A stretch of 4,188 bases of DNA, from the IMG/VR virus record IMGVR_UViG_2526164602_000025, positions 1 through 4,188 of that record; one strand, given 5' to 3'. This stretch comes from a virus (lineage: Duplodnaviria; Heunggongvirae; Uroviricota; Caudoviricetes). Of the stretch, positions 1 through 3,000 are shown piece after piece; position 1 is the first letter of the stretch, and the number at the start of each line of letters is the position of its first letter. The position numbers are program-made.

Positions 1-3000
1 TGATACCTATGGAGAAAAAATAAAGGAACGATACTTTCGTACTCTGGTTTTTAATGAAAACAGTTCTTATTGTCAACAATAACGGAAAGAAATTATGACA
101 TTTCTGAACCAGTTAATGCTGTACTTCTGTACGGTGGTCTGTGTGCTGTATCTCCTTTCGGGTGGGTACAGGGCCATGCGTGACTTCTGGCGCAGACAGA
201 TTGACAAAAGGGCCGCTGAGAAAATCAGCGCCAGTCAGTCAGCCGGAAGCAAACCCGAAGAGCCGCTCATTTAGCGGCAACTTTCTTAATCACACCTTTC
301 GACGAGAAAATCCCATGTCAGAAATTACATCCCTGGTCACTGCAGAGGCAGTGAAGGACGTCCTGCGCTCTGAAGAAGTCCGGAGCGCACTGAAACAGAA
401 ACTTCGCCATAACCTGGAAGCGCGTCTTGATGCAGAAGTGGATGCCATTCTGGATGAACTGCTTGGTGTACAGGCAGAGCCACCGACTGAAGCGGGAGAT
501 ACCACCGCAGAGAGCGGTGAAGTTCAGCCTGAATCACCGGTCGCCGATGCGACTGAACCTCAACCCGAATCGGTCATGATGCTGTAACGGGGAGTCAGGG
601 CCATCAGTAAACAGCTGCTGGCCTTTTTCATGTTGTGAGCTTCCGGATTGCGGGAGACGGGGTATGTACCAGATGGAAAAAATCACAACAGGTGTGTCAT
701 ACACCACGTCAGCGGTGGGAACGGGCTACTGGTTCCTGCAGTTGCTGGACAGGGTTTCCCCGTCTCAGTGGGCGGCAATAGGCGTGCTGGGGAGTCTGCT
801 GTTTGGTCTGCTGACGTACCTGACGAACCTGTATTTCAAGATTAAAGAAGACCGGCGTAAGGCGGCGCGGGGAGAGTAAGCTGATGAGCAGGAAATTCCG
901 CTATGGTTTATCAGCGGTAGTTCTGGCGCTGATTGCCGCAGGTGCTTCTGCGCCTGAAATCCTCGACCAGTTTCTGGATGAAAAGGAAGGTAACCACACC
1001 ACGGCATACCGTGATGGTGTGGGTATCTGGACCATCTGCCGTGGAGCCACCCGGGTGGATGGTAAGCCTGTGATTCCTGGCATGAAGCTGTCGAAGGAAA
1101 AATGCGACCGGGTTAACGCTATCGAACGGGATAAGGCGCTGGCATGGGTGGCGAAGAACATCAGAGTGCCACTGACTGAACCCCAGAAAGCGGGTATTGC
1201 GTCATTCTGTCCTTACAACATTGGCCCCGGTAAGTGTTTCCCGTCGACGTTTTATAAACGAATTAATGCAGGTGATCGAAAAGGTGCCTGCGAAGCGATT
1301 CGCTGGTGGATTAAGGACGGTGGCAGAGACTGCCGTATCCGCTCAAATAATTGCTACGGTCAGGTATCAAGACGTGACCAGGAGAGTGCGCTGTCATGCT
1401 GGGGTATCGACAGGTAAGCAGAATATTTTGCTGAAAAATGACGTTGGCCAACGCGGGCAGATAACACGAAATCCTGCGAACTGGCAAAATGTAAGTGAAT
1501 AAAGTCAACAAGATTGTTTCATGAAGAGGCACCGTAATGGTGCCTTTGTCATTTCTGCGCTTCGCACAAGCGTAAATAAACCAAAGAACCTTTCAGGATG
1601 AGCCCTGGTGGATAACCGGCAGTGGTCTGGTTAACCCTCTTTGGGCTGGTTATTCCTGTGCGCAGGGTTCATCACTAAAAGGAAATAACCGATGAATATG
1701 ATGACCGTGCCGTTTCACGGCGATTCTCTTTATGTGGTTAACCATAACGGCGAACCATACGTTCCCATGAAACCTGTCGTTGCGGGGATGGGGCTGGCCT
1801 GGCAATCACAGTTGGCTAAGTTAAGACAGCGTTTTGCGTCAACTATAACGGAAATCGTTATGGTTGCTGAGGATGGGAAACGACGCAATATGGTGTCCCT
1901 GCCGCTTCGAAAACTTGCAGGCTGGTTACAAACCATCAATCCCAACAAAGTAAAACCCGAAATCCGCGGCAAGGTAATCCAGTATCAGGAAGAGTGTGAC
2001 GATGTTCTCTATGAATACTGGACGAAGGGTTTTGTCGTTAATCCCCGTCGAATGAGTGTGATGGAAGAACTCAATCAGGCTTGCGCTGACATGAAACGGG
2101 ATAAAAACATTGCCAGTGTGTTTGCTACCGGGCTGAATGAGTGGAAACAGGTTAAATCCGCGCATGTATCAAAAATCCGCACATTGATAAACGAAGCGAA
2201 TCTGCTGATTGATTTTGTCCTGGCTGATACAGGCAAAGGGAAAATAACAAAGGCGGATTGATGGAGTGGTGGCTAATGATATCGGATAAACTCATAACGC
2301 TGGCGAAGATCCTCTGTGTAATCGTCGGCATTTCATTTTTAGTCATGCTGGTTGCCATTTTCTTTTCCACCGCCTGGCGAGTCCTGACGTTATCGGGACT
2401 GGTGGGGTGAAAGAGAGATGAACCGTGTTCTGTGTGTGGTGATTATTGTCCTGCTGGTAGCCTGTGGTGCGCTTAGTCTGGGGCTGAATCATTACCGCGA
2501 TAACGCCATAACCTACAAAGAGCAGCGCGATAAAAAAGTCAGTGAGCTGGAGCTGGCAAATGCAACCATTACTGATATGCAGCAGCGCCAGCGTGATGTT
2601 GCTGCACTTGATGCCAGATACTCGAGGGAATTAGCCGATGCGAGAGCTGAAAATGAAACTCTTCGCGCTGACGTTGCCGCTGGTTACCGCAGCCTGCGGA
2701 TCAACGCCACCTGTCCAGGTCCCGTGCGTGAAGCCACCGGCACCGCCCGCGTGGATAATGCAACCGGCCCCCGACTGGCAGACACCGCTGAACGGGATTA
2801 TTTCACCCTCAGAGAGAGGCTGATCACTATGCAAAAACAACTGGAAGGAACCCAGAAGTATATTAATGAGCAGTGCAGATAGAGTTGCCCATATCGATGG
2901 GCAACTCATGCAATTATTGTGAGCAATACACCCGCGCTTCCAGCGGAGTATAAATGCCTAAAGTAATAAAACCGAGCAATCCATTTACGAATGTTTGCTG

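Follow-up and report, generated by a model that had tools for sequence, protein, structure and literature searches.

A conserved small hydrophobic protein gene beside Rz in the lysis region of Stx2-converting phages: a possible lysis accessory factor

Does a reading frame of 49 codons, placed between an antirepressor-like (ant-like) gene and the spanin gene Rz, encode a protein that a phage makes and, if so, is that protein concerned with lysis? The question is raised by a stretch of viral DNA (Caudoviricetes) of 4,188 nucleotides (nt), positions 1 to 4,188 of IMG/VR record IMGVR_UViG_2526164602_000025, which is referred to below in its entirety as the window. The DNA comes from the lysis region of a 933W-like phage that converts its host with respect to Shiga toxin 2 (Stx2); over positions 1600–2900 the window shares 100% identity with sequenced Stx phages and with many Stx2a prophages of Escherichia coli O157:H7 and O104:H4. 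It is argued here that the small open reading frame (ORF) is very probably a real, translated gene and, with a probability that we put at roughly 0.45, that its product is an accessory factor in lysis.

Coding status and start site of the small ORF

The arrangement described in the initial annotation can be confirmed in the sequence. The stop codon of the ant-like gene (TGA, 2259–2261) shares its A with the ATG at 2261–2263 to give TGATG, the ORF of 49 codons ends at 2410, and the ATG of Rz lies at 2418, 7 nt beyond the end of the small-ORF stop. The purine-rich Shine-Dalgarno (SD)-like motif, AAGGCGGA, is also present, with a predicted anti-SD duplex of −7.1 kcal/mol; the 5th percentile of anti-SD pairing among the 16-mers of the window is −6.5 kcal/mol. 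The claim that the ORF is unannotated and likely to have been missed has to be abandoned. The RefSeq Prokaryotic Genome Annotation Pipeline (PGAP) annotates exactly 2261–2410 as the hypothetical protein WP_000455406.1, the re-annotation of the Sakai genome (NC_002695.2) lists the ORF as ECs_5707, phage P27 lists it as vBEcoSP27_551, and phi191 and others list it too. It matches the PHROG family phrog_4906 (E=1.4e-33, residues 1–49 against profile positions 1–49 of 49), for which no function is assigned; phrog_4906, WP_000455406.1 and ECs_5707 are the same protein as that of the window, with no difference. Across 40 E. coli chromosomes that were sampled, the matching feature was without exception a ‘hypothetical protein’; older GenBank records, among them those of 933W (AF125520) and Stx2 phage I, omit it. 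As an object, the gene is already catalogued and is not new; it is its function that is uncharacterised.

The coding status of the ORF was assessed in 213 loci, comprising the window together with phage, prophage and viral contigs; 212 of these have a complete copy and one is cut by a contig end. There are 44 distinct nucleotide versions, of which 40 are intact, with a 132-nt core of identical length, the same stop position and no insertions or deletions, and the disrupted copies (a +1 frameshift or an 11-nt deletion) are found in five loci. The ratio of non-synonymous to synonymous substitution rates (dN/dS, or omega) is 0.26–0.47 in frame, as against 0.8–2 in the two shifted frames of the sense strand. 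In pairwise form (Nei-Gojobori, NG86), omega is 0.26–0.34 for diverged pairs and 0.44 for all pairs summed, with 0.79 and 1.17 in the shifted frames. Column-wise counts give 32 synonymous changes over 32.7 sites and 44 non-synonymous changes over 96.3 sites (omega ~0.47; binomial p=0.001), an excess of synonymous change that is significant only in the annotated frame among the three sense-strand frames. Omega in the same loci is 0.29–0.41 for Rz, ~0.09 for R and 0.03–0.13 for S; by this measure the small ORF and its neighbour Rz are under similar constraint. Thus, the initial view of the ORF as a real gene for a small hydrophobic protein is borne out by comparison among relatives, with only 5 of the 212 complete copies disrupted and values of omega (0.26–0.47) that indicate purifying selection. 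Because the start and the stop are fixed, an SD sequence is present in every context and the constraint is specific to one frame among those of the sense strand, we regard the ORF as a genuine protein-coding gene.

There are two candidate starts, ATG 2261 and the internal ATG 2276, and their SD scores are similar, namely −7.1 kcal/mol for the former and −6.0 kcal/mol for the GGAG motif that serves the latter. The N-terminal extension between them, MEWWL in the window and MGWL in 933W-type loci, creates the TGATG overlap and occurs only in loci in which the ORF follows the ant-like gene. What is conserved in both protein and DNA alignments is a core of 43 residues, beginning MSDKLITLAKILCVIVGISFSLMLVA, that corresponds to residues 7–49 of the window protein; ATG 2276 sits one codon upstream of the Met of this core in relatives. 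In contexts other than that of ant, the equivalent core ATG is preceded by AAGGGG or GGGAGG (−8.4 to −11.3 kcal/mol in most loci), and a strong SD sequence stands before it in every such context. Furthermore, the extension contains a stop codon in five loci, all of them in the ant context: TAG at codon 3 in L012, L035 and L036, and TGA at codon 4 in L119 and L174. The core is intact in these five loci, which retain a 44-residue ORF from the internal ATG. The comparative data therefore favour ATG 2276, and not ATG 2261, as the probable conserved start; the overlap on which the initial annotation laid weight exists, but it is doubtful as the functional start. Since the mosaic joint described below falls at the start of the core, since the extension can be interrupted with the core intact and since the two SD scores are similar, the overlap appears to be a by-product of the junction with ant, which may or may not be used.

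One or more copies of the gene are present in 1749 of 5426 complete E. coli genomes (32%; median 1, maximum 11). The gene is common but, as it is absent from most Rz-bearing prophages, dispensable, and the family is confined to prophages of E. coli and Shigella. When one genome from each species was scanned, the sole match outside E. coli was a 328-nt contig filed under Xanthomonas pisi DSM 18956 (L012, NZ_JPLE01000251.1); its copy is 98% identical at the protein level to the E. coli phage ORF and the match is probably the result of contamination. A word-indexed protein search returned 68 clusters, all from E. coli or Stx phages, and an exhaustive hidden Markov model search of 1.84 billion representatives returned 28 matches only, all of which are family members or fragments.

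Neighbours of the small ORF and layout of the lysis region

The left flank of the small ORF differs completely between contexts. In about 90 loci it is the 3' end of ant, in two subtypes that carry the MEWWL- or the MGWL- extension; in about 58 it is the end of a 60-residue transmembrane (TM) ORF, with GGGAGG or AAGAGG before the ATG; and in about 60 it is a third or a fourth type of sequence, with AAGGGG before the ATG. The small ORF is found without ant in about 120 of the 213 loci, where it stands behind the 60-residue ORF, a 31-residue ORF or other inserts. Because the sequence upstream differs so completely, a mosaic joint with the ant module can be placed at the start codon of the core. 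On the right, Rz is present wherever the contig extends far enough, and it is the only constant neighbour. It begins 7–12 nt downstream in most loci, with at least three junction sequences and two Rz N-termini; the 7-nt spacer AAGAGAG recurs in 79 loci, and GGGGTGAAAGAGAG is the stretch serving Rz at the junction in the window. About 45 loci have two more tiny ORFs between the small ORF and Rz, and rarely the distance is 900–940 nt. The small ORF lies on the late strand between R and Rz in all loci with the flanks present. To judge from these alignments, it is an independent mosaic unit, the left neighbour of which varies and the right neighbour of which is Rz.

The lysis genes further upstream are an S21 pinholin and a lysozyme of the signal-anchor-release (SAR) type in 120 of the 124 loci with enough upstream DNA. 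Rz is also found downstream in L119 and L174, although the variant of the ORF that they have is elsewhere accompanied by no pinholin/SAR pair. In L174, an IMG/VR contig, ant, the small ORF and Rz stand behind membrane proteins of 130 and 91 residues and a 125-residue endolysin without a SAR segment, which is M15-peptidase-like as assigned by reading the ORF sequence and not by a Pfam scan. The arrangement in L174 amounts to a module exchange to the left of ant.

The R–Rz interval of related cassettes contains further tiny ORFs with a single TM segment, the order and number of which shuffle between phages; examples are included in Table 1. The 60-residue ORF is phrog_1115/4493 and the 31-residue ORF is phrog_6632. 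A 38-residue ORF, which sits downstream of the 43-residue gene, matches the C-terminal part of the 60-residue ORF, and the stop of a 28-residue ORF overlaps the start of Rz (TGATATG). A gene with a Rha/ORF11CD3 domain (4784–5332 in L004) lies downstream of Rz in ant-less cassettes, at the place where the window has bor, and regulator-like genes of the ORF11CD3 type recur at different positions around Rz.

The features of the window are summarized in Table 1. The R protein of 933W has been employed as a SAR endolysin (PMC9239132). DUF1378 and DUF826 represent conserved, uncharacterised late-region genes of Stx phages. The first ~100 nt of the gap after R are common to the ant-less cassettes, and at the corresponding site two of these (L004 and L011) have another strong GC hairpin that carries a T-run, which suggests that R is separated from the lysis genes after it by a conserved terminator or insulator. 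The IS629 copy, which is 99.85% identical to IS629 of Sakai Sp5, is inserted downstream of bor and before the terminase genes, and the collinearity of the window with other Stx phages stops at 3518.

Table 1. Features of the window and tiny ORFs of two related loci (the latter in coordinates of their own loci).
Feature	Position	Strand	Remarks
DUF1378	95–274		59 residues; hydrophobic N-terminal stretch
DUF826	315–587		just upstream of S, beside DUF1378
S21-type pinholin S	664–879	+	Pfam Phage_holin_2_1, E=7e-33
SAR-type lysozyme R	884–1417	+	Pfam Phage_lysozyme; weakly hydrophobic, SAR-like N-terminal segment
Non-coding gap after R	1418–1691		274 nt; holds the terminator-like hairpin
Terminator-like hairpin after R	1525–1547	+	
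ant-like gene	1692–2261	+	P22_AR_N and ORF11CD3 domains (Pfam); variable insert
SD-like motif AAGGCGGA for ATG 2261	2250–2257	+	purine-rich; 3 nt upstream of the ATG
Small ORF	2261–2410	+	49 codons and TGA
N-terminal extension MEWWL	2261–2275	+	5 codons
SD-like motif GGAG for ATG 2276	2263–2266	+	9 nt upstream of the ATG
Conserved core ORF	2276–2410	+	44 codons (MISDKLITLAK...GLVG) and TGA; equals the 43-residue MSDKLITLAK... protein of relatives
Predicted TM helix ILCVIVGISFLVMLVAIFFSTAW	2309–2377	+	23 residues; residues 17–39 of the 49-residue form
Spacer between small ORF and Rz	2411–2417	+	7 nt, AAGAGAG; SD region of Rz
Rz i-spanin	2418–2882	+	Pfam Phage_lysis, E=1.6e-49; constant downstream neighbour
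Rz1 o-spanin	2638–2823	+	embedded in Rz in a different frame; Pfam Rz1, E=3.1e-22
bor	2914–3207	−	
IS629 (IS3 family) copy	3517/3518 to window end (4188)		
Other tiny ORF, R–Rz interval of L004	3806–3988		
Other tiny ORFs, R–Rz interval of L011 (phage vB_EcoS-705R7)	~735–830, 961–1077, ~1088–1175		

Predicted product and comparison with known systems

The product is almost wholly a single hydrophobic segment, as the initial annotation had it. The Kyte-Doolittle maximum for a 19-residue span is 3.14 (residues 17–35 of the 49-residue form), and AlphaFold2 predicts a single helix over residues 2–45 with a predicted local distance difference test score (pLDDT) of 88.6. All variants share the length and the hydrophobicity of the product. 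Two lysines precede the TM segment, Lys10 without exception and Lys16 almost without exception, and the lysines are confined to the N-terminal side in most variants; the C-terminal tail, (R/M)xL(T/S)xSGL(V/L)G, has 0–1 charges. The positive-inside rule would give an N-in/C-out topology, with a short cytoplasmic N-terminus and a periplasmic tail of ~10 residues. Three assignments of the product were considered and rejected. It is not a lipoprotein, as it lacks a lipobox (C19 is preceded by K-I-L), nor does it have a signal peptide, the putative cleavage site (between S-T-A and W) not being conserved and Pro or Gly occupying position −1 in relatives. It is not a spanin of any type (i-, o- or u-), given that the predicted periplasmic tail has only ~10 residues, that there is no lipobox and that both Rz and Rz1 are already present.

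Small membrane proteins encoded in lysis cassettes, such as S21 71, lambda S107, T4 RI and P1 LydB, set the timing of lysis through contacts of their transmembrane domains (TMDs) or in the periplasm; the holin gene itself gives rise to S107 and S21 71 as alternative products, and RI possesses a domain in the periplasm. The possible dual start at 2261/2276 is superficially like the dual-start motifs of holins. However, the small ORF is a separate gene beside Rz, its upstream start is not conserved, and no sequence similarity to the antiholins was found. By sequence criteria, assignment as a holin was rejected: there is no match to a holin family at E≤0.1, there is no hydrophilic, highly charged C-terminal domain, and the cassette already has an S21-type pinholin. 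The type I toxins Hok, TisB, Ldr and Ibs are small, hydrophobic, toxic peptides, and the likeness consists in size and in the single hydrophobic helix. In contrast to these, the small ORF belongs to a polycistronic late operon, and no promoter of its own, antisense RNA or family match was found. No sigma-70-like promoter was predicted in 1300–3300 on either strand (a consensus scan being a weak test), and there was no meaningful Rfam match, in particular no antitoxin RNA (again a weak test); on these grounds a type I toxin–antitoxin system was rejected.

A further system compared is the releasin of phage Mu, gp25, a 99-residue protein with an N-out/C-in topology and an acidic cytoplasmic domain of 73 residues (DUF2730) (PMC9239132). 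It is an accessory lysis factor, and it resembles the small ORF product in being a non-holin membrane protein with a single TMD, encoded a few genes away at most from a SAR endolysin and adjacent to spanin genes (PMC9239132). The peptide described here differs in having 44–49 residues, no soluble domain, a predicted N-in/C-out topology and no Pfam match. The assignment as a releasin was rejected, as there is no match to DUF2730, the 44–49 residues are all helix or TMD, and the lysines are N-terminal.

Possible functions of the peptide

The R–Rz interval has no predicted promoter, and R is followed by a terminator-like hairpin; the gene would accordingly be expressed only from the Q-antiterminated late transcript along with Rz/Rz1, and the peptide should be made together with S, R and Rz/Rz1. 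Where ant is upstream, ribosomes terminating at its stop (2259–2261) might begin anew either at 2261 or, by re-initiation, 15 nt further on. The resulting peptide of ~44 residues (49 if ATG 2261 is also used) would take its place in the inner membrane next to the other membrane proteins of lysis, where it could act, by way of helix–helix contacts, as a dispensable accessory factor that tunes the timing or efficiency of the last steps of lysis. Because Rz is the only constant neighbour, the first candidate partner would be the N-in/C-out TMD of the i-spanin Rz, which has the orientation predicted for the peptide. An action directed specifically at Rz must nonetheless be considered rather doubtful. 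The suggestion made at the outset that the peptide might modify the timing of lysis is upheld in so far as a lysis-related role is plausible from the position in the late cassette; homology lends no support to the toxin, effector or holin-like activities that went with it.

Several observations weigh against an accessory role in lysis or against the coding assignment that underlies it. The constraint on the small ORF is only moderate (omega ~0.3–0.47), the C-terminal third is variable, and the helical periodicity of conservation has no clear peak near 100 degrees and thus marks no interaction face. As many as 4631 genomes match the 1.3-kb query, mostly via Rz, as against the 1749 with the small ORF. 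The peptide has no match in Pfam (E≤0.1), NCBIfam, PADLOC or a PDB profile search. No paper mentioning the ORF was found in the literature searched, including the papers on the 933W pinholin and lysis cassette, and the genes named in comparisons of Stx-phage lysis cassettes are S, R, Rz/Rz1 and Ant, without the small ORF. The association with Rz could be plain genetic linkage within one cassette lineage, given that 120 of the 124 loci share S21/R21, with R 86–100% identical. There is, in addition, an open antisense frame in wobble alignment with the ORF, for which omega is 0.49, so that dN/dS alone does not fix the strand, and BLOSUM scoring of the replacements did not separate the two frames. 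The antisense frame is open because the sense peptide has no Tyr, His or Gln, and its omega is attributable to composition and to mirroring of the sense frame. It runs across the small ORF from 2152 to 2370 (minus strand) in the window and has equivalents in other loci. A gene on the antisense strand was considered and rejected: the ends of the open stretch are not conserved, ranging across contexts from 33 to 216 nt on one side and from 10 to 388 nt on the other, and it has no promoter.

The main alternative to a role linked to Rz is an action one step earlier, in which a stable TM helix binds TMD2 of the pinholin or the SAR domain of R and so delays or accelerates triggering, in an antiholin-like or release-modulating manner. 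The position of the gene between R and Rz and the presence of an S21-type pinholin and a SAR lysozyme in 120 of the 124 loci would suit such a function, and the Mu releasin provides a precedent for control of SAR endolysin release by a non-holin membrane protein (PMC9239132). The co-occurrence is, however, explained by common descent of one cassette, the lysis genes in front of the ORF in L174 are another holin set and an M15-peptidase-like endolysin that lacks a SAR segment, and the peptide resembles neither releasin/DUF2730 nor the holin families; this alternative is unlikely. We judge it somewhat less probable still that the gene specifies a late membrane peptide with a role outside lysis, be it superinfection exclusion, membrane-directed interference or a small depolarising toxin. 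It is true that the gene is small, hydrophobic and prophage-borne, and that its moron-rich neighbourhood includes bor as well as other tiny TM ORFs. Against this, it is oriented with the late strand and always precedes Rz, it has no predicted promoter of its own and stands behind a terminator-like hairpin, and neither an antisense RNA or Rfam match nor a PADLOC or Pfam toxin family match was obtained.

It might also be argued that the peptide itself is unimportant, either because translation of the ORF delivers ribosomes to, or unfolds, the start of Rz, as in a coupling leader, or because the ORF is spurious. The stop is close to the SD sequence and ATG of Rz in most contexts, the last codons (GGGGTGA) are themselves SD-like, and only moderate amino-acid constraint is seen, all of which such a leader could accommodate. 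It would not account for the synonymous excess specific to the annotated frame among the sense-strand frames or for the fixed length and hydrophobicity, nor for the at least 45 loci in which another small ORF, or 185–940 nt, precedes Rz and the small ORF is still intact, and we therefore hold it to be about as improbable as a role outside lysis. Much the weakest case is that of a two-gene module, as proposed in the initial annotation, in which the peptide would be the membrane effector translationally coupled to the ant-like gene. The TGATG overlap and SD-like motif of the window, and the presence of ant immediately upstream in about 90 of the 213 loci, speak for the idea. About 120 of the loci have the ORF without ant, however, five with an intact core have stops in the overlapping extension, the mosaic junction falls exactly at the core start codon, and PADLOC gave no match at a meaningful E-value for either the small ORF or the ant-like gene. 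A pairing with the P22_AR_N gene that is both obligatory and coupled was not found, and a module of this kind was rejected as very improbable.

On a bolder reading, the R–Rz interval of S21/R21-type cassettes could be a recombination hot spot with interchangeable genes for tiny single-pass membrane proteins (the 43-residue family, the 60/38-residue family and the 31- and 28-residue ORFs). As a class not recognised before, these peptides would regulate the spanin or the pinholin step and so be able to tune lysis timing and hence the release of Shiga toxin by enterohaemorrhagic E. coli; this wider proposal is speculative and, in our estimation, unlikely.

For annotation, the practical consequence is a correction of the conserved start to ATG 2276, with a 44-residue product, in place of the TGATG-overlapping ATG 2261. 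The question of function is of modest interest, by virtue of the position in the Stx-phage lysis cassette and of the several interchangeable tiny TM ORFs in the R–Rz interval. Toxin release from Stx phages depends on phage-mediated lysis, and the gene forms part of the lysis cassette in 933W-type phages from O157:H7 and O104:H4; about one-third of complete E. coli genomes have it. Were the peptide to have no measurable effect, it would be one more conserved phage microprotein; were it to modulate the spanin or the pinholin step, it would be a new component of a well-studied lysis paradigm and would provide a lever on when toxin is released.

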